From: Promethearchaeota archaeon
GTDB lineage: Archaea > Asgardarchaeota > Lokiarchaeia > Sigyniarchaeales > SOKP01
DNA length: 26,809 nt
Reading direction: 5' to 3'
NCBI GenBank assembly: GCA_048941015.1
Contig: JBHLNZ010000043.1
Coordinates: 1-26,809 of the forward strand
In this document: piece by piece, positions 12,609 to 26,529 of the stretch
How positions within the stretch are numbered: the first letter of the stretch is position 1
How the letters are laid out: each line of letters begins with the position of its first letter
Notes under the pieces: model-generated
Seen by the model: only the letters and a program-made list of their open reading frames with translations
Told to the model about the DNA's origin: nothing
Database searches by the model: none
Position numbers and translations under genes: made by a program

Positions 12609-13373
12609 ATGACGTTTGATTCGGGGTTCAGGGTCTATAAGAAATACAATGATATTCCACCCATTTCAAGTGGAGACACAACGCTAGATGAACTATTGGG
12701 AGGAGGAGGTTTCCATAAAGATTTAGTATATCTTTTATATGGAGACAAAGAAACCAAAAGAAGGATTACAAACGTTTTGCTTACAACTGCCGTAAATGCA
12801 CAAAAATCTTTTGTTAATGGAGGATTTGGAGATAGAATTAAGGTTGCGTTTGTCGATGCCAACAACCATTTTAACCCGTATAATGTAGGGAAATATGCTG
12901 TTTCACAGCATCTATCTCCTAAGCAAGTATTAGAGAATATTCAAGTCGCTCGAGCGTTTACTTGGGATCAAATGGTCGAACTTTTGGAAAACAAACTCTC
13001 GAAGTTAGAGCACATTAAAGTAGTATTAATCTCGGGGATTACTACTTTATTTCACGGTTATGAAAAACAAACATTTGAGGATTTGTTGAAAGCAATAAGT
13101 GGAATCAAAAAAATACTTGAAAGAACAAACCCTCTGATTGTCATAACTGCGCCTCTGAATGAATACAGTTCATTTAGGCCCAAAGGGGGAAAGATCCTTT
13201 CTCATTTTGGAAATGTTCTGATACTAATCAGAGAAGGAAAAAGAAATGTAGAATATCACCTCGTTCAGCATCCATATTTAGCAGAAAACAGCTTGCTAAA
13301 ATGGAAACCCAAGGAACCTAAGATGAATCTCTCAAAAGCCTTGAAAAACACCACACTAGATTACTGGATTTAA
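12609..13373 (+). CDS. Inactivated RadA/Rad51-family ATPase paralog with C-terminal PIP-like box
   Basis: RadA core motifs ISSGDTTLDELLGGG, AFVDANNHFNP, LENIQVARAFT, GGKILSH. Walker A is replaced by GDKETKRRIT and Walker B reads VVLISG (Asp lost). No N-terminal HhH domain. ATG 12609 is preferred over the GTG at 12567. Ends KNTTLDYWI. Confidence 0.85.
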   Translation: MTFDSGFRVYKKYNDIPPISSGDTTLDELLGGGGFHKDLVYLLYGDKETKRRITNVLLTTAVNAQKSFVNGGFGDRIKVAFVDANNHFNPYNVGKYAVSQHLSPKQVLENIQVARAFTWDQMVELLENKLSKLEHIKVVLISGITTLFHGYEKQTFEDLLKAISGIKKILERTNPLIVITAPLNEYSSFRPKGGKILSHFGNVLILIREGKRNVEYHLVQHPYLAENSLLKWKPKEPKMNLSKALKNTTLDYWI

Positions 13374-13452
13374 ATTGTATTTGATATTACCTTTTTGGGA
13401 GATTTATAGAGAATCTAAATACTTCTTAATTTACCCATAATAAGGCATAATC

Positions 13453-13466
13453 CTAAGGTTTAAAAA
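13453..13466 (+). promoter_or_regulatory. Putative BRE/TATA promoter of the KAP microprotein gene
   Basis: ctaagg-TTTAAAAA, with the TATA box at 13459-13466, about 72 nt upstream of ATG 13538. Confidence 0.5.
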
Positions 13467-13537
13467 TGAAAACAATAATTATAACCAGTAACAAAAGGAA
13501 ATTAAATTAAATTAAAAAAGAAGAGATGTAAACCACT

Positions 13538-13651
13538 ATGGCTAAAAAGAAAGCACCCGCTAAAAAAAAGCCAGCACCAAAAAAGGCTCCTAAGAAAAAG
13601 GCTCCTGCAAAAAAGGCTCCTAAGAAGAAAGCCGCTCCAAAGAAGAAATAA
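13538..13651 (+). CDS. 37-aa Lys/Ala/Pro-only basic microprotein (histone H1 C-terminal-tail-like)
   Basis: MAKKKAPAKKKPAPKKAPKKKAPAKKAPKKKAAPKKK* (19 K, 10 A, 7 P, 1 M). Synonymous codons vary among repeats. Upstream GAGATG RBS-like element and TATA box; T-rich tract downstream. Below the ORF-track cutoff. Confidence 0.85.
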   Translation: MAKKKAPAKKKPAPKKAPKKKAPAKKAPKKKAAPKKK

Positions 13652-13736
13652 AAAATGATATCAAGAAGTATGTTAATAATTAAAAATGATTTTTTTCTAA
13701 CGTTTACTTTTTTATAAATTTATTACTTTTATAATC

Positions 13737-15202: not shown

Positions 15203-15363
15203 CTTATTCACTTTGAAAAAATATCTATAATCTTACAATGTTAAAGCAATATATTAATTCTTCTAAGTATTTTTTTCATAACAAAAAAAAATTCAAAAAT
15301 CAAAAAATTCGCAACGTATTTTTTTTTTAATTCTATAGGCAACTCTTCTTCTTGGTTATTATT

Positions 15364-15636
15364 ATGGGTAGAACGGTACCTTCTTTTAGACCTGCGTTAG
15401 AGCATGAGATTGAGAGTTGGAAGGATTTTAAAAGAGCACTTAGACCTGAAGAACAAAAGATCTTTGACAGATTAATGAATTTTGCCCGAATCCACGCTGA
15501 TGCGGGTAGCTTAGGTGCACGCCCTATGCTCTCAGAAGTTCTCTTTATCTCTTTTGCAATTGAACAAGAAAAAAAAATTACATCCTTAGAAAAGAAACTT
15601 GATGAATTAGAAAATTTGGTTAAAGGGAATGATTAA
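15364..15636 (+). CDS. PolB2-associated small helical protein (arCOG07300-like)
   Basis: MGRTVPSFR...W..FKRALR.EEQ..FDRL...AR.HA.A signature, lying directly upstream of polB2 (3-nt gap). Confidence 0.8.
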   Translation: MGRTVPSFRPALEHEIESWKDFKRALRPEEQKIFDRLMNFARIHADAGSLGARPMLSEVLFISFAIEQEKKITSLEKKLDELENLVKGND

Positions 15637-15639
15637 AAA

Positions 15640-18042
15640 TTGGATTTGCAGAATAATTTTGATGGATGGCTTTTAGACATTTCTCTTTATAGGAATGGTG
15701 TAATTCTTTGGGTAAAAGATTTAAAAGAAAAGGTAGTTCGAAAAATCTACCAAAAATATTGTCCGGAATTTTTTGCCGTTCCAAAACCTAGTGCTGGAAA
15801 TGATGTAAAGAGGTTAAAGTACATTCTACAACAAAATTCCAATATTTCCCGAATAAGAGTGTGTGAGAAATATGTAAAATTAGAGGATCACAAAAAAAGT
15901 AAAGTTTTTGGATTATCTGTTTCAAAACCTTCATTATTCAAGAAAATTATTAAAGAAATTGATGAAATTGGCCTCTTTACACTGTATAATACAGATCTTC
16001 CTATTACTCAAATGTACTTCTATGAAAATGATTTATTTCCAATGGCTCTCTGCAATTTTAGGGTAAAGATCGAAAGAAACAAGCAAAAAGGAAAGACAAT
16101 GCATCTTACTTCTTTAGAACTTAAAGATAACAACGAGCTTCTCTTCTATGATCTACCGCCTTTGAAGGCTGTATGGTTGGATGTAAAAATTCAACAGAGA
16201 GGCATAAGATATTATTACAATGACCCTCTTAATTACGCTCTTATTAGTATTGTAGAAAATGATGAGGAAAATGTTCCACGGGCTGATGGGTACACAAAAC
16301 GTACGATTCTAATTGACGAAGCTGACGAAGCTGAAACACTGAAAAAGATTAGTAAAGCAATTGAAAAGCTTGATCCTGATATTATTCTCACTCACCACGG
16401 AGATGAATTTATGTTTCCCTATTTGGCTGCTCGAGCATCAATAAATCACGTATCAAAAGACTTATACTTCTCACGAAACAAAAAGTCTTTAAAAAATTGT
16501 TTTTTCAACCTTTCAGGAAATTCTGATCACTATATGTCTTATGGTATAATACGACGTCGTTCGAGGACACAAGTATATTTCACTGGCAGAATTCATCTGG
16601 ATACAGCAACTTATGCTAGCCTTCATTTTACAGAAGGTAATATTCCCGGAGTCATTGAAGTGGCACGTATTTCAAGAATCCCTATGCAGAGACTCTGTAG
16701 AGTGACTATCGGGGGTGCACTCCAGTCTATCCAATATTATAATGCTTATAAACTCGATCATCTCATTCCTCCCTTTAAAAAGAGTCCTGAAGACTTTCGT
16801 TCTGGGATGGACCTAATTAAAAGCGATCGCGGAGGCCACATTTTTGAGCCCCTGATTGGAGTTTTTCATCATGTAGTTGAATTAGATTTTTCTTCAATGT
16901 ACCCCTCTCTAATGGCAACATACAATATTTCTTCAGAAACTATAAACTGCCAATGTTGTAAGGATGATGGTACCGGAATAAAAGTACCAGGATTAAATTA
17001 TCATATTTGCTCAAAGAGACAAGGGATAATTTCAAAATCAATTAGTCTCCCTTTAATAAAGCGACTAAAGTGTAAAGAATATGTACGAAAAACAAATAGT
17101 ATTCGCTATAAATTTACTGATACTGCACTAAAATGGGTTCTTGTTGTAAGTTTTGGTTATCTAGGGTTTAAAAATGCTCGTTTTGGAAAAATCGAGGCGC
17201 ATCAAACGGTTTGTGCTTTTGCTCGTGATCTTCTTATGCGTTCTGTAGAAATTGCAGAAAGTTATGACTGTGAAATAATTCATGGAATTGTAGATTCGAT
17301 GTGGCTTAAAGACAAGAAACGTAGAACAATAGAGGAATTTGAAGAAATTACTAAACAGATTGCAAAAGAAATAACTGAGCATACAAAAATACCTATGAGC
17401 TGGGATGGTAGATTTGACGTCATATCGTTCCTTCCATCAAGAGCAGAACCCGATATCCCCGCCCTAAGTCATTACTGGGGTATCAAAAGTAGCGGCGAAC
17501 TAAAGGTAAGAGGTATAGATGTTAGACGCAGAGATGTGCCAAAAATAGTGAAAGAAGCTCAATATGCATTTATCAATGTATTCAAAGGAGCAAAAACACA
17601 AAAGGAATTCATGGAAAGAATGCCTGAAGTTAAAAAGAAACTTTTGCAATATGCCAATAGGATTCAAAATGGGAGCGTTTCTAGAGATGAGCTTACAATT
17701 CGTCAAAGAATCTCAAGGAGACCATCACATTATAAGGTTAATTCTTACCAAGCCGTTGCTGCCAAACAGCTAGAACGTTCTGGTGCCATAGCATCGCCTG
17801 GAAAGAATGTAAGATATATCATTCTCAATGCTGATGCTGATCCAAATTTTCCAGAGAAGAAAGTAATACTTTCTGACTTATATGACAGTAATAAACATGA
17901 ATATGATAAAAAAAAGTATATAGAACTTCTGAAAAGGGCATTTGAAAATCTTTTTCCTTTTGAATTTCCTGAACTTGAGGCGTTATTGAAATTAGATTTC
18001 AGTAAGAAACTTAATCAAAAAGATTTATCTTGCTTCACTTAA
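15640..18042 (+). CDS. polB2: Family B DNA polymerase, PolB2 (Dpo2) subfamily, proofreading-deficient
   Basis: Motif A ELDFSSMYPS followed by NISSETINCQCC; motif B ALKWVLVVSFGYLG; PolB2-type motif C HGIVDS instead of YGDTDS. Degenerate exonuclease motifs (WLDVKI, HHGDEFMFPYL). C-terminal QKDLSCF. Confidence 0.92.
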   Translation: MDLQNNFDGWLLDISLYRNGVILWVKDLKEKVVRKIYQKYCPEFFAVPKPSAGNDVKRLKYILQQNSNISRIRVCEKYVKLEDHKKSKVFGLSVSKPSLFKKIIKEIDEIGLFTLYNTDLPITQMYFYENDLFPMALCNFRVKIERNKQKGKTMHLTSLELKDNNELLFYDLPPLKAVWLDVKIQQRGIRYYYNDPLNYALISIVENDEENVPRADGYTKRTILIDEADEAETLKKISKAIEKLDPDIILTHHGDEFMFPYLAARASINHVSKDLYFSRNKKSLKNCFFNLSGNSDHYMSYGIIRRRSRTQVYFTGRIHLDTATYASLHFTEGNIPGVIEVARISRIPMQRLCRVTIGGALQSIQYYNAYKLDHLIPPFKKSPEDFRSGMDLIKSDRGGHIFEPLIGVFHHVVELDFSSMYPSLMATYNISSETINCQCCKDDGTGIKVPGLNYHICSKRQGIISKSISLPLIKRLKCKEYVRKTNSIRYKFTDTALKWVLVVSFGYLGFKNARFGKIEAHQTVCAFARDLLMRSVEIAESYDCEIIHGIVDSMWLKDKKRRTIEEFEEITKQIAKEITEHTKIPMSWDGRFDVISFLPSRAEPDIPALSHYWGIKSSGELKVRGIDVRRRDVPKIVKEAQYAFINVFKGAKTQKEFMERMPEVKKKLLQYANRIQNGSVSRDELTIRQRISRRPSHYKVNSYQAVAAKQLERSGAIASPGKNVRYIILNADADPNFPEKKVILSDLYDSNKHEYDKKKYIELLKRAFENLFPFEFPELEALLKLDFSKKLNQKDLSCFT

Positions 18043-18369: not shown

Positions 18370-21300
18370 TTAAATTCTAACTTCGAAGAAATACCAAACT
18401 ATTAATACAATTATCCAAATTATAAACAATGTAATAGATATAAATGTTGTATAAAACCTCCACTTAATAGATATCTTTTCTTTCTTTTCTTTTCGATAAA
18501 TAAATATTAGTGTTATTGCCCCAAGGCCTAAAATCGGGGGTAAAATTAATACAAATTGATATAATACTGATTTAATGTAAGGTAATATTAAAGCAAATAT
18601 AAAACCAGTCATGCCCAACCATGCTGTAATAAATCTTTTCATTTTCTCCTCAAAAATTTCATCAGGTTCTTTTGCTCTCTTTGAGGGAATTAAACCAAAA
18701 AATATTCCAAAGACTGCTACTGCTAATAAATAAGGATAATACGAATGTAGTAGACCAAGCATTATATCAGAGAAAAGAATTCCTGTGAAAATTCCTAAAG
18801 CCATACAAATTATAATCCGAATATATTTAAAATTTGCTTCCAAGAAATTAATAAGAGTATAATAAGCTGATATTATTGCATTCTTTAATTTAATATAAAG
18901 AGCATTTAAATAATCCATGAAATGATTAATTAACTCCTTTAAGTCTTCTAACATAAAAATAAAAGGATAAATTAGAATTCCTATAATTAAAAATGACCAA
19001 CTCCAGTTAGAGGTTGAAAAGAAGTAAAAAATAAAACTTAATAACAAGAAAATTAGTGCCCAATAGAGAAATGAAATCAATCTGTGTCTTTTAAATGGTT
19101 TAAGTAAAACTCCCATGAATATTGTGAAAATTAGAGAAGAAATTGATGAATTTAACATTAGGTTGGGAAAATTATACTCTAAAACAAAAAAAGTATCTAT
19201 AGATAGAAGAACGCCAAAAATTATTAAACTATAAGAAAGTATCTTCTTTCTGAAATCATTTTTAATTGCTTTCACAGAATAGTCTACTAGAGAAAATAAG
19301 AGTACTAACCCAGAAGAAAATAAAAAAAGATGCAAATTATTCAGTAAACTATAGCTTAAATAATAGAGTGGCCACATAATAATATCAAGATAAAAAATTA
19401 TTATTAATACTTTTTTAATCATCATTTTCCTTACTTCTACAGATTTCCAGAATTCTAGCATCTTAAATAGATAAGTCAATTCAAATAATAATAATAAAAT
19501 GATAATTGGTATAATTGGAGTTGAAAAAAGAGATATCCAGCTCATAAAATATAGAACCGAAAAGCCTAGAATGAATAACAGCGAGAAAATAACGAAATAA
19601 TTCGAGATTTTTCCCAGAAACTTTACTACTTTTTTATCAATTAACATTAGGATATGAATCGTAATACTTAAAGTTAGTAATATTAGTTGTGCCTCTATAT
19701 TTGTTTGAATTAAAAGTTGTGAAATTAAATTCAGCAAACTAATATAAAAAGCAATGCCGATAATTCTTTTCCTATAAGTCATCCATTTTTTAAAAATAAC
19801 TTCTTTTTCTGTTTTAAATTTAGTTCGAATTTTATAATAAGTATAATTGGTATAGAATTGCAGTAAAATAAACAGAATAAATGAGGAGTTATATAAAATT
19901 AAATTTAATAATGAAAATTGTAATAAAATCATTAATAGAGCCCATGTGAAATTAAAATAGCTTATGAAATGTACCAGAAGCATATATTTATTAGGTAATT
20001 TCTTTACTAATACTATCTCTAATGAACTAATACACAATAAGATTATTTGTGAACCTAAAAAGCTTTCAAATATTCCAAAATAAAGATTTAAAAATCCGTA
20101 AAAAAATATTGTGATTTCTAAATATACTACGAATATTAGAATAGAAAATATTCTATTAATTACATTAATATTAATTCTATCCGAATATTGGTTTTTGATT
20201 GAGTAGATATGGTAAAAGATTAATACCGTCTCAATTATAGTAATCAACATAACACTGAAAATATTAAAAAAGTATAACGATAGAAATAAATTCAACCAAA
20301 ATAGTAAGAGATTAAGTTGAAGTACAGCAAAAATTATTAGATGGATTGGGATAATTAATTTCTTATTAACGCGTTTTGCAATGTAAATATCAAATAATGT
20401 TAGAATAAATAAAATGCAACAAGATGTTAAGATACTTTCAATAAGATCAAGACTAATAACCTCGACTATTAATCCAAATGTTACATAAAAAATTTCAAAA
20501 TAGAGTGTAATTCCAATAAAGGAATTAATTTTGTTGATTTTTGTTTCTAAATTCTTAATATCAATTTCTACGCCAGATGTTTTAATATACCTCAAACTAA
20601 ATAAAATTAGGATAGACCAAATTATGAGAAATTCAAATATTCTTAGTAAAATTGAAAATACGCTAAGTAAAGAAACTATTAAAGAGAAATACGTTGAATT
20701 TAAGATAAAACATATTAAATTTAGTATTTTAATTTGATTTTTATCACTAAAAAAGCTCTTAATCTCATTATCTTCACGTTGATTCGATATTTCAATAGGC
20801 TTATTATAAATGTTAATTAAAATTTGAAAGATAACTGTATATGCCAAAAATCCTAATAAAGTCAAGATTATAATTGGTTTAAATAATGGAAATACAGAAA
20901 AGACTTGTAAACTTAAAAGGGCAATAGGAATAGGATATAAATACCACATTATATATCTATATCTCCTGATAATCGAATAGACAAAAGTAATATTAATTGC
21001 GGTTAAAAGTGTTAAAGCAATATAGAGGAAATTTGGAAATGCGTTAAATATTAAAAAGAATAAAGAAAATGAAACTCCAATTGATAAAAACACTACTGGA
21101 ATTATTTTTTTAATAGGAGTTATCATTTTAAAACGATTAAAAACATAAAAGCTTCCTCCAAAAACAGCTATAGCGATAAAAGTAGCTAATACTTGATTTT
21201 TTGGGATTAAATTGAAAGTAAAAAATGTAAAGAGTGAAAAACTTGTAGTTAAAATAATAGAAATCAAAAAATTTATGATTTTTTGATTTAATTTGAAGAT

Positions 21301-24300
21301 TCTAGAAGAAAAAAGACTTAAACCAATTATCATGAAAGCTAAGTTAATAGAGATAGGGGTATTTAAGATAATTCTATTAATTAAATTAAAAATGATTAAA
21401 TAAATACCTGTAAGAGCTACGAAATAAGATCCAATCAAAATAACACCCTTTTGTGCTTTTAAGTTAGGGAAAAACGATAATATTATGAAGTGAAATCCCA
21501 AAGTAAAAAGAGTCAATGAAAAATTAACATCAAAAGGGATTTGAACTATTTCTAAAAGAATGAAAAGGAATGTGACATTTATCAGGCTGGAAATTATCCA
21601 AAATATCATTAATAATTTCCAAAATTTCAATTTATATAAAATTGGCATCAAAAGTAATACTGCAAAAACACTAAAAAGGAAATTAGTTAATAAAAGACTT
21701 TCCACGAAAATATTTTGACAAAACCAGTATATAAGAAATAAACTCAAACCCCATACTGAAAATAACACCAAAGCGAAATTCTTTTTAACCCAAGTATACC
21801 AAAACGGTAATGAAAGTAGGACTGATATTATAAGAGTTATCAGAAATGATCCGTTTATCTCTAGTATTCCAAATAAAGTTAAAGCATTAGTATATATATC
21901 TAAACCAGAAATACTTTCGTATATTATAAGAAAATTTATTATTGGAAAGAATATCCAAACCCTCCATCCCACTTTCCAAATAGCCCAAGAGATCTTCCAT
22001 TGATAAATTCCAATTGAAAGATAATATAGGAATATAGCTATATTTAATGATATGATAAATATAATTGGATTCCATATAGATAAGGAGGTTACTGCAATCA
22101 AGAAAAAATAGACGAATACTGGAAAAGCTATAGTTATTAAGGGAAGAACAAGATAAAAAGATCTTTTCCTAAACACTGGAGTGCTTTTATTATAAACCGA
22201 AACAAAAGCTAATCCTGTGATTGTTAAGGTTAGAGTGAAACTCAGAATAGGATTATATTCACTAAAAAGAATATTTTTAAAGAATACCCCATAGGATAAA
22301 TAACTAATAAGATCAAAAATGAATAATAGAATACATGGCTTAATAAACCATTTATATCTTTCATCTCGTTTACTATAAAAAAAGTTCCCTGTTAAGCCAA
22401 GAAAAACTAAACATGCTATTGTTGTATTATAGAAAATCGGAATAACAGGATAATAAGTTAAGATAGATACAAAAATTAAGGCAGATACTGTACTATAAAG
22501 TGAAAGTTTCTCAATTATGTTGATTCTCCTTATATTCAGAATAATTGATGAAAATAAAATTGAACTTATTGTTATTAATAGTAAACATATGTAAAATCCA
22601 AAAGGGAGAAATATACCTAAAGTGCCTATTAATAAAATTAAATTCAAATAAATCACAAAACTTAGCACAATATAAGCGATTGACCGTAATATAAAATTTC
22701 TGTTTCGCCTGATGAGAATTACTATATATGCGATGACCATAAATAAAGGGAAGAATATTGAGAGAAAGAAAGAAAATGCTAAAACAAGTATGAAATAAAT
22801 TAGGAAAAGTTGATAAATTTTGAATTCAGAGCTATCTTCACCTATTTCATTAAATCGAAGTACATAAGAATTAGCCAATAAAAATATTATAGAAAGAATT
22901 AGCATTAATATTAAATATTGATTTTCATAGAAGAGAGGGTGAATTAACAAAGAATTCCAATAGATTTCAATAAAAATACAAATTAAAGAGATAAAGAATA
23001 TTAACACAGTGATTTTAATCAATCGTTCTTTTGAAATTTCTAAAATTACGAATCTCTGTTTAAAAAAGTATATTGTTATAGGACTTAAAATCGCAAAGAT
23101 TAATGTAGTTAATAAAATATGATTTATAATCGAAAGTCCAAGAGGATATAATGCTATTATTGAAATTATTATAATTTTAATGGTAAGCCATAATAGCAAT
23201 TCTATGTTTTCCACTAATCTTTCAAATTCAATTTTAATAAGGCTCTTAAAAATTATTAAAAGTAGTAGATTTATGAGCAAAAATAGTCCTGAATTATAAA
23301 GTACTATTAATATATTATAATCCACTGGAAAAAGTAAAGAAGTGAGATTAATTGGTTGAACTAACGTGAAAAGAATAATTGAAATGGATAAGATTATCCC
23401 TAAAATGCTAAGATTCTTATTATATTCGAATATTTTATAGATTTTATAAAAATCAAATCTTGATTTTCTAGATTCAAATGTCCTTTGTTTTAAATCTTCG
23501 ATTTGGAATAGATTAAAAAGGTTTAGAATAAAAAATACTAAGCAAGAAATTCCAATTATTAAAATCTTAAACCATAAATCAGATGTATTTAGTATGTACA
23601 TACATAACTTCCAAAAAACTAAAATACAAATAAAAAACCAACTAAATATTTGTAAAATTTTAAGATTAATTAGAAAAGTTTCTTTCATCTTTATATACTC
23701 AGAAATCCTACTTAAAAATTTAAGAAAACCAAGCACAAGTAGCATTGTAATAATAAATATTATTAAAAGATCGATAGAAAATCCTAACTTGGTAAATTCA
23801 AGAGCGAAAACGGATGGAATTAATATAATACAACCCCATATAAAAAAAGTATTAATGAATAGAATTTTTCTTACCAAATTTGGGATGAAGAAACCTTTTT
23901 TATAAGAGAAAAATAAAGGAATAAATAGAAATCCAGATGCCGCCATTGAAGGGAACAATAATGCATAAAAACTACCAGTCAATAATCTGTATGGGTAATA
24001 AAATATGACAGTACCAGTTATCAGAAATTCAATGATAGTCTGAATTTTCAAAAATAAATTGATATTCTTAACTTTAATAATGAAATTCTTCACTAGCATA
24101 TATATGAATCCTAAAATTCCATATAAAATGAATAATGTAAAGTTTATTATCGTAATTATATCAATGCTAATTCCTAACTTAATTAACTCCAAACTAATTA
24201 TTGTTGGAATTAATAGTAATGAAATTGATAGAATCAAACTGTTGATTATTAATATATTTTTAAAAATCTTTGGCAATTTGATTTTATTTTTAATGTAAAG

Positions 24301-26529
24301 TATTGGAATGTAAAAAAATAGACTTGAAAATATAATTGGAAGTATTAATGTGTAATAAGTATTAATAGAGTAAATATACAGAAAATAATATATTAAAAAT
24401 GTCGTAAATAATAGAGAAATCATATTTAACAGAAAGCATGACGATTTAGAGATTAATCTATCCTTAAGAAAAATATTGCTTGATAAGCTAAAAATAATTA
24501 AAGAAGAATATGCGGAAATAATGATATTGTTGATAAGAGGTAATGAACTAAGCAAGTTAAAAAATAAGAAAAATAATAATCCAAAAAATTCTAAAAAGAT
24601 CAAATATGAATTAATATTAGTGAAAATTCTCATTACAGATTCCTTTACTTTTCCTATTTTTAGTCCAAATTTTAATGTAATATGAGAAAATATTGAGAGA
24701 AATAACAAACCTAATAAAATAACTACACTACTATAATAGAAATTAATAACAATAGAAAGAAATATGAAAAATACTAAAAACCAACATGAATAATAGCTAT
24801 ATAATTTACTTTCCCTTACTGAGATTACTCTAATGAGATAATTTATAAAAATGAATATTAAAAAAGAAGTTGGGAATAAAATTAGCAGAGTTGTAACATT
24901 TCCTAGAGAATTTAGGAAACCAAAAGTGAAAAACTGTTTAAAAACAATTAATACATAAGAACTAAATATAATTAAAACGAAATTTAAACTTAAAATTCTC
25001 CGAAAATTTTTCCAAGGTTTTTTGATAAAATAGACAGCATATAAATAATAAAAAGAAACTAAAAGAATACTTAGAATAAAAACAGAATGTAGAATTATAT
25101 TGGAAATTGAGATAAAAAAAGGATCTGTTGTAAATGTGATATAATCAGAAATAACTATCGGGAAGAAAGAATATGCAATAACAAAAAACAAAGAAACGGC
25201 AAGAATGTGTTGAATAATAATTATATTCTCTTTGATGAAATATCCTTTCTTTACAAAGATTTGTAGAATTATGAATAAAAATATGTTAAAAGTAATTATT
25301 TGAATGTTTAAGCTCATTAAATAAATAACGTCTGGTAATATCCAGAATGCTATAGAAGCAAAGATTGCTATACAATTTATTAAAAGAATATACTTACTAT
25401 ATTTTTTTGGACAGTAATCTGCCTTCTGTTCAAATAGAGTTATTATAATAATAATTGGTAATATAAAGAGAATAACTAATGGTTGATTAATTAGGATGGA
25501 GAATAAAATAGTGAAAACTATGAATAAAAAAGAGATTGACGCATTATACTTTTGATATTTAATATCTAATAATTGTTGACTGTCCTCTTCATTAGTTCTC
25601 TCTAATCTCATATAAAATTTTTTAAAATTAATAAGCATATATATTCTAAATTTTAGGTAAAATAACATCAAAATAATTGATAATAATGAAGCTCCGAAAA
25701 GACCTGAATATGAACTACTTAATCCTATAAAATTGTAAATGATAATGATTACGTATGGAATTTGAATCAATAAAACGAAAATTAAACTAAATATAGAAGA
25801 CGCAAACTTGTGTTTATATTCCGCTAAATCTACTAAAAATGGTTTTCCTTCATGGATTGCTTTATCAATCCTTTTTCGAGATTTATTAGTAGATATTAAA
25901 GTATTTAAATAAAAAATGAGATTTGTAATAAGAGCGAAAAGCCATGAATAGCCTGTATAGAATGTATAGGATAAAAAAAATACCTGCCCAACAAAATTTA
26001 AGATAATAATCAAATTATAAAATTGTCTTATTGTTAAATTGAAGCTCATAGCATGCTTAAATTCACTTTTATTAATATCAAAAAAATCAATGGGTTGAAA
26101 GTAATAATAATAATAAACAATATTGTAAAGAATACAAAATGATATCAATGGCAGTAATTCAAATCTGTACCCTTCGGGGGTAACTACTGTAAAAATAGGA
26201 GTAACAATTAAAGATAACAGAGTTATAAAAAACAGGATATGAATTCTAGCAATAGGATTATTTATTTTATTCTTGAAGAAAGGCTCTTTTCTATATTTAT
26301 CGTACGATTTATAGAAAAAGAGTAATGAAAACATAAATGCAAGTATAGTAAATCCAATCGATAAGATTACATCTTTTATAATAAAATTAAATATAAAAAA
26401 CCAGATTACAGAAATAATTGCAGGAACAATTATTAAATAAAAACAAAACCACCATATCTTCCAGAGTAATTCTGTTGCTTTTTCAATTCTTTGCCCTGAT
26501 TTTTGATTCACATGAGATTCCATGTTCAT
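18370..26529 (-). CDS. Giant (2719 aa) polytopic integral membrane protein of unknown function with internal repeats
   Basis: Uninterrupted 8.16-kb ORF made almost entirely of I/L/F-rich hydrophobic segments separated by short K/R-rich loops; no recognisable catalytic domain. Start may be 26523. Confidence 0.85.
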   Translation of the reverse strand: MNMESHVNQKSGQRIEKATELLWKIWWFCFYLIIVPAIISVIWFFIFNFIIKDVILSIGFTILAFMFSLLFFYKSYDKYRKEPFFKNKINNPIARIHILFFITLLSLIVTPIFTVVTPEGYRFELLPLISFCILYNIVYYYYYFQPIDFFDINKSEFKHAMSFNLTIRQFYNLIIILNFVGQVFFLSYTFYTGYSWLFALITNLIFYLNTLISTNKSRKRIDKAIHEGKPFLVDLAEYKHKFASSIFSLIFVLLIQIPYVIIIIYNFIGLSSSYSGLFGASLLSIILMLFYLKFRIYMLINFKKFYMRLERTNEEDSQQLLDIKYQKYNASISFLFIVFTILFSILINQPLVILFILPIIIIITLFEQKADYCPKKYSKYILLINCIAIFASIAFWILPDVIYLMSLNIQIITFNIFLFIILQIFVKKGYFIKENIIIIQHILAVSLFFVIAYSFFPIVISDYITFTTDPFFISISNIILHSVFILSILLVSFYYLYAVYFIKKPWKNFRRILSLNFVLIIFSSYVLIVFKQFFTFGFLNSLGNVTTLLILFPTSFLIFIFINYLIRVISVRESKLYSYYSCWFLVFFIFLSIVINFYYSSVVILLGLLFLSIFSHITLKFGLKIGKVKESVMRIFTNINSYLIFLEFFGLLFFLFFNLLSSLPLINNIIISAYSSLIIFSLSSNIFLKDRLISKSSCFLLNMISLLFTTFLIYYFLYIYSINTYYTLILPIIFSSLFFYIPILYIKNKIKLPKIFKNILIINSLILSISLLLIPTIISLELIKLGISIDIITIINFTLFILYGILGFIYMLVKNFIIKVKNINLFLKIQTIIEFLITGTVIFYYPYRLLTGSFYALLFPSMAASGFLFIPLFFSYKKGFFIPNLVRKILFINTFFIWGCIILIPSVFALEFTKLGFSIDLLIIFIITMLLVLGFLKFLSRISEYIKMKETFLINLKILQIFSWFFICILVFWKLCMYILNTSDLWFKILIIGISCLVFFILNLFNLFQIEDLKQRTFESRKSRFDFYKIYKIFEYNKNLSILGIILSISIILFTLVQPINLTSLLFPVDYNILIVLYNSGLFLLINLLLLIIFKSLIKIEFERLVENIELLLWLTIKIIIISIIALYPLGLSIINHILLTTLIFAILSPITIYFFKQRFVILEISKERLIKITVLIFFISLICIFIEIYWNSLLIHPLFYENQYLILMLILSIIFLLANSYVLRFNEIGEDSSEFKIYQLFLIYFILVLAFSFFLSIFFPLFMVIAYIVILIRRNRNFILRSIAYIVLSFVIYLNLILLIGTLGIFLPFGFYICLLLITISSILFSSIILNIRRINIIEKLSLYSTVSALIFVSILTYYPVIPIFYNTTIACLVFLGLTGNFFYSKRDERYKWFIKPCILLFIFDLISYLSYGVFFKNILFSEYNPILSFTLTLTITGLAFVSVYNKSTPVFRKRSFYLVLPLITIAFPVFVYFFLIAVTSLSIWNPIIFIISLNIAIFLYYLSIGIYQWKISWAIWKVGWRVWIFFPIINFLIIYESISGLDIYTNALTLFGILEINGSFLITLIISVLLSLPFWYTWVKKNFALVLFSVWGLSLFLIYWFCQNIFVESLLLTNFLFSVFAVLLLMPILYKLKFWKLLMIFWIISSLINVTFLFILLEIVQIPFDVNFSLTLFTLGFHFIILSFFPNLKAQKGVILIGSYFVALTGIYLIIFNLINRIILNTPISINLAFMIIGLSLFSSRIFKLNQKIINFLISIILTTSFSLFTFFTFNLIPKNQVLATFIAIAVFGGSFYVFNRFKMITPIKKIIPVVFLSIGVSFSLFFLIFNAFPNFLYIALTLLTAINITFVYSIIRRYRYIMWYLYPIPIALLSLQVFSVFPLFKPIIILTLLGFLAYTVIFQILINIYNKPIEISNQREDNEIKSFFSDKNQIKILNLICFILNSTYFSLIVSLLSVFSILLRIFEFLIIWSILILFSLRYIKTSGVEIDIKNLETKINKINSFIGITLYFEIFYVTFGLIVEVISLDLIESILTSCCILFILTLFDIYIAKRVNKKLIIPIHLIIFAVLQLNLLLFWLNLFLSLYFFNIFSVMLITIIETVLIFYHIYSIKNQYSDRININVINRIFSILIFVVYLEITIFFYGFLNLYFGIFESFLGSQIILLCISSLEIVLVKKLPNKYMLLVHFISYFNFTWALLMILLQFSLLNLILYNSSFILFILLQFYTNYTYYKIRTKFKTEKEVIFKKWMTYRKRIIGIAFYISLLNLISQLLIQTNIEAQLILLTLSITIHILMLIDKKVVKFLGKISNYFVIFSLLFILGFSVLYFMSWISLFSTPIIPIIILLLLFELTYLFKMLEFWKSVEVRKMMIKKVLIIIFYLDIIMWPLYYLSYSLLNNLHLFLFSSGLVLLFSLVDYSVKAIKNDFRKKILSYSLIIFGVLLSIDTFFVLEYNFPNLMLNSSISSLIFTIFMGVLLKPFKRHRLISFLYWALIFLLLSFIFYFFSTSNWSWSFLIIGILIYPFIFMLEDLKELINHFMDYLNALYIKLKNAIISAYYTLINFLEANFKYIRIIICMALGIFTGILFSDIMLGLLHSYYPYLLAVAVFGIFFGLIPSKRAKEPDEIFEEKMKRFITAWLGMTGFIFALILPYIKSVLYQFVLILPPILGLGAITLIFIYRKEKKEKISIKWRFYTTFISITLFIIWIIVLIVWYFFEVRI

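Follow-up and report, generated by a model that had tools for sequence, protein, structure and literature searches.

We show here that a 26,809-nucleotide stretch of a Lokiarchaeial contig (hereafter the window, meaning the whole stretch of DNA that was analysed) carries a microgene for a 37-residue peptide that consists, after its initiator methionine, of nothing but lysine, alanine and proline (the KAP peptide). Judged by the pattern of codon changes among its relatives, the gene is protein-coding and selected at the protein level in its sense frame, and we are highly confident that it is real. Its predicted product is in effect a tail of the lineage's own tailed histone that lacks the histone fold and has been extended by (K)KKAP(A) units in tandem.

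An ORF made of lysine, alanine and proline codons

The KAP ORF runs from ATG to TAA at 13538-13651 on the plus strand, stop codon included, and its 37 codons read MAKKKAPAKKKPAPKKAPKKKAPAKKAPKKKAAPKKK (K19, A10, P7 and M1, or 51% Lys, 27% Ala and 19% Pro). Synonymous codons are mixed for all three amino acids: GCT 6, GCA 3 and GCC 1 for alanine; CCT 3, CCA 3 and CCC 1 for proline; AAA 9 and AAG 10 for lysine. AAG therefore supplies 10 of the 19 lysine codons (53%) compared with 21% genome-wide, a usage that interrupts the runs of A, and in no member of the KAP family is the longest such run more than 10 A. Such an ORF is most unusual in its host, whose assembly (Promethearchaeota, Lokiarchaeia) has 3.59 Mb at 29.4% GC. 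In a six-frame translation of these 3.59 Mb, only the KAP ORF contains 20 consecutive residues with nothing but K, A and P; these three residues make up 17% of the host proteome, and the ORF has 41% GC as against 14-22% in its flanks. Taken together, these values exclude a chance origin.

Within the ORF, imperfect tandem 15-nt units encoding K-K-A-P-x extend over 13580-13644 on the plus strand (TRF: period 15, 4.1 copies, 80% match), and this imperfection indicates that the repeat is not a clean microsatellite. An earlier note on the window, made from the sequence alone, had given exactly these coordinates and this composition, had drawn attention to the varied synonymous codons, and had argued for selection on a protein and against a DNA microsatellite. 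The codon counts bear out the second point, while the imperfect repeat and the synonymous excess among orthologues described below agree with the third. The only other K/A/P-enriched stretch in the host genome (G000) is found on the minus strand of contig C107, in an ORF that is hydrophobic in its N-terminal part and then continues into a stretch rich in K, P, A and E, KPAKKEPAKKKPAKKQPVKAKPTEEKPAEE.

A predicted single-gene transcription unit

By the signals that surround it, the KAP ORF is a single-gene transcription unit with its own putative promoter, ribosome-binding site and terminator, all on the plus strand. A BRE/TATA-like box, cctaaggTTTAAAAA, occupies 13452-13466; its TATA element, TTTAAAAA, lies at 13459-13466 and starts 79 nt before the ATG, and the box is conserved in orthologues. 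Given the usual archaeal distance from TATA box to start site, the transcript would begin with a 5' untranslated leader of about 50 nt (13490-13537). An SD-like GAGATG at 13523-13528 stands 9 nt upstream of the ATG, at the same position as in the orthologues, and is conserved in L228, a near-orthologue of 36 residues from an independent metagenome. Downstream of the ORF, a run of seven T (13690-13696), likely an archaeal terminator, is conserved both in L228 and in the family, and a second T-run follows at 13708-13713.

The same arrangement recurs in the 32 distinct orthologous genes that we collected. Nearly all of them have a TTTAAA or TTTATA box at -79 to -86 (consensus agaaatcTTTAAAaa), most have an SD-like element about 9-10 nt ahead of the ATG, and all 32 have a run of 6-12 T located 18-62 nt past the stop codon; the start ATG itself is kept at 33 of 33 KAP loci. 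Two promoter subgroups can be told apart. In the larger one, to which the window gene belongs, the SD reads GGAGACG, GGAGAGG, GGAGATG or GAGGTG, and in the second the SD-like element is GGGAAAAGGGAA; the 16S rRNA of the host has the 3' end GGATCACCTCC. The promoter that had been proposed from the window alone (at 13453-13466), the GAGATG and the T-rich tract each correspond to a conserved element of the orthologues at the same distance.

Two other readings of the transcript were rejected. The putative transcript (13488-13700) has no match in Rfam and no significant RNA structure, folding no better than shuffled sequence (z +0.93), which speaks against a structured RNA. A lysine-sensing leader peptide or upstream ORF was dismissed because the terminator lies directly 3' of the ORF and the next gene in the window is convergent.

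Selection on the protein

Comparative evidence for translation in this frame comes from eight orthologues of 37 residues each. Pairwise comparison of their codons gives 323 synonymous and 56 nonsynonymous differences, as against a neutral expectation of 22% synonymous for single-base changes, and the nucleotide differences fall on codon positions 1, 2 and 3 in the ratio 14/49/344. Twenty-seven of the 37 codon columns vary in nucleotides, and only 6 vary in amino acid. L228 differs from the window gene by about nine synonymous changes and one replacement, with a stop one codon earlier; between the two loci the promoter box is almost identical, the SD, the coding sequence and the terminator region are conserved, and the middle of the leader has diverged. 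All 32 distinct KAP genes read as intact ORFs of 27-37 residues, so that the length differences among them keep the frame.

These data bear directly on the alternative that the ORF or repeat is recent and effectively neutral, an A-rich stretch of low complexity that would be open by luck and encode a peptide without a role. The patchy occurrence of the gene and its variable length through gain and loss of repeats would be in keeping with such an origin, as would the ease with which lysine-rich extensions are born from AT-rich DNA according to a review (PMC10919886). We nevertheless regard it as very unlikely in view of the strong excess of synonymous changes, the retention of GC-rich alanine and proline codons in a 29% GC genome, the conservation of start codon, SD, promoter and terminator over three genera, and the fact that every length change is in frame and lengths stay confined to 27-37 residues. 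A gene on the opposite strand, encoding a hydrophobic F/L/G/A-rich peptide, was rejected and deserves next to no weight: the antisense frames are largely stop-free owing to the low complexity of the sequence, and one of them has a synonymous excess too (277 vs 108) owing to wobble positions common to that frame and the sense frame, but a covering start codon is found at only 7 of the 33 loci (mostly TTG) and is missing from 18, the window has no antisense ORF of at least 25 residues, and promoter, SD and terminator are all positioned for the plus strand.

A patchily distributed gene family

To define the family, we searched 400 Asgard genomes with a DNA pattern for MAKKKAP and used the reversed pattern as a control. 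The pattern matched in 83 of the 400 genomes, 78 of these among the 134 genomes of the family to which the window belongs; the reversed control matched in none. When the 109 matches were read, 51 proved to be histones, 33 were stand-alone ORFs and 25 belonged to other proteins. The stand-alone ORFs have 27-37 residues of K, A and P, in which G, S, T or V are rare. A profile (A1) built from 31 distinct KAP peptides added six more genomes with a match; in these the match lies in a short open frame (33-49 aa) that was counted as stand-alone without being read. With these included, a stand-alone KAP gene occurs in 38 of 135 genomes (about 28%) of one Lokiarchaeial family, in three genera and as one copy each. 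In addition, a search pattern that spans the SD-like site and the start codon retrieved 14 contigs from JGI metagenomes, 13 of which, L228 among them, have a K/A/P ORF of 27-37 residues. It is worth noting that a protein search of 41 relatives' genomes missed most KAP copies because of their low complexity, and that the DNA patterns did better.

From these loci we describe the Lokiarchaeial stand-alone K/A/P microprotein family as having 27-38 residues, at least 90% K/A/P, a MAKKKAP start, a TATA box at about -80, an SD-like site, an oligo-T run and one copy per genome, and the window ORF shows every one of these features. The gene is absent from all other Asgard families sampled and from several genera of the same family, and two broader patterns found no such ORF in five congeneric genomes that are 99-100% complete. 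Its absence from these five and from most of the family indicates that the gene is dispensable. No cultured organism carries it. A viral or mobile origin was also considered and dropped, as IMG/VR contigs hold no stand-alone copy.

From the protein catalogues searched, the peptides are missing. An exact look-up of eight KAP peptides among 15 billion predicted proteins found none of them, and a profile search across 1.84 billion representatives yielded no short protein, only five long, high-GC proteins with PAKKA repeats; neither Pfam nor the PDB holds a family or a relative of the KAP peptide. The nearest neighbours by features in the ESM Atlas are unnamed clusters of 32-38 residues (scores 0.96-0.97, with low recognition, hence a lead only), which suggests that some metagenome callers do predict such peptides. 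The earlier note had foreseen that gene callers would miss the peptide, in agreement with its absence from the catalogues searched, and had listed, among the outcomes that would tell against it, a lack of homologous short ORFs in relatives and an origin as a piece broken off the tail of a longer gene. The 38 family genomes and 13 metagenome contigs answer the first, and KAP is a self-standing gene. One congener without a 27-37-residue gene has, on a short contig (L214, G017:C64), a stand-alone ORF of 80 residues rich in K, P, T and R (MAKKTTVRKRPPAKKRPPAKKKPTTPKK...), and its upstream region differs from that of the KAP genes.

Likeness to the tailed histone

The closest relatives of the KAP peptide in sequence are the tails of histones from the same lineage. 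The 51 histones among the matches are HMf-type proteins of the same family, 77-94 residues long, whose N-terminal tail reads MAKKKAPAKK(K)SEGYIAKAPIRRLMKKEGA..., and residues 1 to 7-10 of the KAP peptide, MAKKKAP(A)KK, are identical to this N-terminus. A MAKKKAP match in a 6.0-Mb genome of a neighbouring family ends in ...RKRVTAADVIAAE, the immunogen of the anti-HLoB.1 antibody (Lokiarchaeum ossiferum), and this correspondence identifies histones with a MAKKKAP start as HLoB-type. Tailed HLoB histones are abundant, and their tail lysines acetylated, in cultured Lokiarchaeia (preprint 10.64898/2026.07.02.735847); the same preprint makes no mention of a stand-alone or small protein, a linker histone or a protamine. 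The host genome itself has five histone genes, one of which (contig C137) starts MAKKKPAPKKKAETYIAKAPIRRL, and the N-terminus of the host's own tailed histone is MAKKKPAPKKK.

KAP peptide and HLoB tail thus have in common their first residues, their K/A/P composition, their predicted disorder and the organisms that host them, and the genes on both sides are monocistronic with a strong TATA box and SD. Examined as a candidate HLoB histone, the KAP peptide has the lysine-rich MAKKKAP start but not the histone fold (PF00808): it has no Pfam match and, at 37 residues, is too short for the fold, and the stop codon and terminator directly follow the KAP repeats. It also differs from the HLoB tail in being two to three times as long as the family's usual tail of 10-13 residues, on account of its tandem units, and from the HLoB histones in its promoter sequence and in being confined to about 28% of genomes in the family.

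The difference in regulatory sequence is consistent. Histone genes have their own conserved promoter, cataacaTTTATATAatagaaatgtgtag, and SD, GTGGAGGAAT, distinct from those of the KAP genes, and we therefore rejected the possibility that the KAP gene is a recent copy of the 5' end of a histone gene; given the differing promoters, common descent with the histone tail is likewise unproven. Nor is there any sign that the peptide compensates for short tails, since the mean histone tail has 14.3 residues in genomes with a KAP gene and 14.8 in genomes without one.

K/A/P sequence on other proteins

Beyond the window's family, every occurrence of PAKKKAPAKK is in the tail of a larger protein from another Asgard family, namely Alba, RNA polymerase subunit D, aIF2-gamma, an S25e-like protein, a ClpP-like protein and HLoB (K/A/P-tailed loci L196, L197-L199, L200-L203, L211 and L213). 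Inside the same Lokiarchaeial family, a MAKKKAP cap is also seen on RadA (L085, L129, L135), on RpoL (L159, L180), an L-like subunit of RNA polymerase that carries an acidic extension, and on a MoxR-type AAA_5 ATPase of 420-449 residues with a long K/P-rich N-terminus (L086, L089, L132, L150). MAKKKAP gives the impression of a basic N-terminal motif that proteins handling nucleic acids have in common.

Two further groups of small proteins came to light. A second conserved small protein of 44 residues (MAKKKAPATGAEKALQEQFEKETGKKAIHCGNMTKAYKEWKANQ), without a Pfam family, is found at L115, L122, L133, L134, L137 and L155, and its C-terminal module also terminates a 338-residue protein that has a K/A/P-rich linker (L205). 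Proteins of 65-67 residues with a MAKKKAP start, from other Asgard families (L152, L153, L189), give weak, below-cut-off matches to the histone fold.

Proposed function

We favour, with moderate confidence, a reading in which the KAP peptide would act as a disordered polycation, attaching by charge to DNA or histone-wrapped chromatin and promoting compaction or bridging, on the analogy of known lysine-rich proteins. That DNA or chromatin is its main target we would rate as roughly an even bet, and compaction or phase separation of chromatin is plausible from composition alone. The peptide is predicted to be intrinsically disordered and would carry a charge of about +19 over its 37 residues, which should suffice to offset the charge of roughly 10 bp of DNA. 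It would be held to a polyanion by charge, the likeliest being AT-rich genomic DNA or histone-wrapped chromatin, and neutralisation of the phosphate charge would then lead to compaction or bridging, as it does with the H1 C-terminal domain, kinetoplastid H1 and bacterial PAKKA-type tails. Since its N-terminus is the same as that of the histone tail, its lysines may also be substrates of the histone-tail acetyltransferases and deacetylases, and its charge would in that case be tunable. The assumption of polyanion binding draws on analogy, given that the PAKKKAPAKK-tailed proteins Alba, RNA polymerase subunit D, aIF2-gamma, the S25e-like protein and the histones are all nucleic-acid binders.

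Charge alone does not distinguish DNA from RNA, ribosomes or polyphosphate. A general polyanion binder off chromatin, which would coat one of these and serve as a charge buffer, chaperone or condensate organiser, is a possible though unlikely alternative. K/A/P tails are also present on aIF2-gamma and on the S25e-like ribosomal protein of other Asgard families, and the bacterial H1-like protein AlgP associates with polyphosphate granules and spaces them (PMC9239181). However, the N-terminal motif is closest to the histone tail, also heading RadA and RpoL in the same family, and no ribosomal or translation genes lie near the KAP locus.

Somewhat more doubtful is a role as a mimic or decoy of the histone tail, in which the peptide would compete for tail acetyltransferases, sirtuin deacetylases or readers and would tune histone modification without binding DNA. 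The first 7-10 residues are those of the tailed histone, and LoHAT2, which a model places in contact with Lys3 of the HLoB tail, has a broad range as an acetyltransferase of lysine-rich tails (preprint 10.64898/2026.07.02.735847). Yet the N-terminal motif would suffice for such competition and the charge pattern is conserved over the full 27-37 residues; moreover, the KAP locus has no linked gene for a writer or eraser, and a +19 peptide would bind DNA regardless.

Binding to DNA or chromatin by charge is the reading that we prefer. As a more speculative extension, to which we give a low probability, the KAP peptide could be a diffusible, trans-acting free histone tail on hypernucleosomal chromatin, written and erased by the enzymes of the HLoB tail, and could thereby provide a tunable, linker-histone-like compaction that arose independently of H1. 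Asgard chromatin is studied as the prokaryotic model closest to the beginnings of eukaryotic chromatin, and modifiable tailed histones have only recently been described there. A conserved gene for the tail only would be a component invisible to present proteome-based surveys, which are blind to it because the peptide is absent from the catalogues searched and because trypsin would destroy it. If it does bind chromatin, the KAP peptide would give archaea their first analogue of a charge neutraliser of the linker-histone or protamine type, and would be a simple system for learning what a histone tail does apart from the nucleosome.

Linker histone H1 and bacterial H1-like proteins

The C-terminal domain of linker histone H1 is a K/A/P-rich disordered polycation, and kinetoplastid H1 consists of this tail only, without a globular domain. 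The KAP peptide resembles both in these properties and, by analogy, in the charge neutralisation of DNA that would be expected of it, and it shares with kinetoplastid H1 the missing globular domain. In contrast to the H1 C-terminal domain, it has only one third to one half of the length and no S/TPKK phosphorylation motifs, and in contrast to H1 as a whole, it has no winged-helix domain to go with it in the host genome, no detectable homology, and a narrow and patchy range. Neither the KAP peptide nor 30 of its relatives match the linker histone family PF00538 at E values up to 10, and no PF00538 match in the whole host genome exceeds the cut-off, the best E of 0.115 being no better than in control genomes. 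The lysine-, alanine- and proline-rich character of the C-terminal domain is the one H1 feature that the peptide has, as a resemblance of composition only. The H1-tail-like identity proposed in the earlier note accordingly stands for composition but not for the closest sequence relative, which is the lineage's own tailed-histone tail and not H1. According to a review, no H1 homologues have been found in archaea (PMC6136690); among the structural clusters that a recent preprint gives for Asgard is an H1-like one (10.64898/2026.10.28.762692).

A relationship by descent between the KAP peptide and the eukaryotic H1 C-terminal domain is extremely unlikely. What speaks for it is the composition (K 51%, A 27%, P 19%), but the gene is limited to part of one Lokiarchaeial family, the host genome lacks the H1 globular domain, the peptide has no Pfam or PDB match, and low-complexity K/A/P tails repeatedly arise on unrelated proteins. 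The suggested relevance to the origin of the H1 tail was not upheld, the gene being present in about 28% of one family's genomes and in no other Asgard family sampled; its narrow, patchy range and the ease with which such tails originate (PMC10919886) make any bearing on that origin unlikely. A lineage-restricted and dispensable KAP gene fits with an easy, repeated origin of K/A/P tails and tells little of H1 ancestry.

Among bacterial proteins, Chlamydia Hc2, Pseudomonas AlgP and mycobacterial HupB/MDP1 and Ku with their PAKKA repeats (PMC2848022, PMC9239181, PMC5676037, PMC3553676) likewise contain lysine-rich penta- or hexapeptide units in tandem, gained or lost through slippage that keeps the frame. 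They bind DNA or another polyanion by charge, as we would expect of the KAP peptide. In HupB and Ku, it is the PAKKA/KAAK tails that bind DNA (PMC5676037, PMC3553676). The differences are that the bacterial proteins have 165-380 residues or carry the units as tails on folded domains, while the KAP peptides are free, archaeal and 27-37 residues long. None of 31 KAP peptides matches the HC2 family (PF07382) at E values up to 10; six of the 31 have a weak Pfam match to DUF1388 (E 0.12), and an HC2-bearing cluster in the ESM Atlas (score 0.91) is a lead only. By analogy with the known lysine-rich, charge-neutralising nucleoid proteins, a free Asgard peptide of 27-37 residues would be a new member of their number.

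Genomic surroundings

In the window, the KAP gene is preceded by a RadB/Rad51-family gene (12609-13373) and followed by a DUF3795 gene and an amidohydrolase gene on the minus strand, beyond which lie a small ORF of 94 residues (15352-15636) and a family-B DNA polymerase gene (15640-18042). The relatives of the RadB-like neighbour all come from Promethearchaeota/Lokiarchaeia MAGs, in agreement with the Asgard origin that had been guessed from the letters of the window. The KAP gene is present at only 1 of 80 loci that hold this neighbour. The order RadB-like, KAP, DUF3795 is common to the window and one genome of another genus, which argues for vertical descent there. Elsewhere, the KAP gene is flanked by genes for nitroreductases, ferredoxin/flavodoxin proteins and a PLP decarboxylase, which vary between subclades. 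As these neighbours are metabolic and not conserved, they give no functional hint, and a functional link through synteny was rejected on the strength of the single occurrence among 80 RadB-like loci and the unrelated metabolic neighbours at other loci.

Some minor features of these loci may be recorded. The KAP, DUF3795 and amidohydrolase genes part the RadB/Rad51-family gene from the 94-residue ORF and the family-B DNA polymerase. At the other-genus locus (L015:3777-4239, minus strand), two ORFs of 62 and 63 residues stand between the RadB-like and KAP genes and may be a toxin-antitoxin pair. Further along the window, 18370-26529 on the minus strand is a single ORF of 2719 residues, in a stretch with 21-26% GC, below that of the rest of the window.
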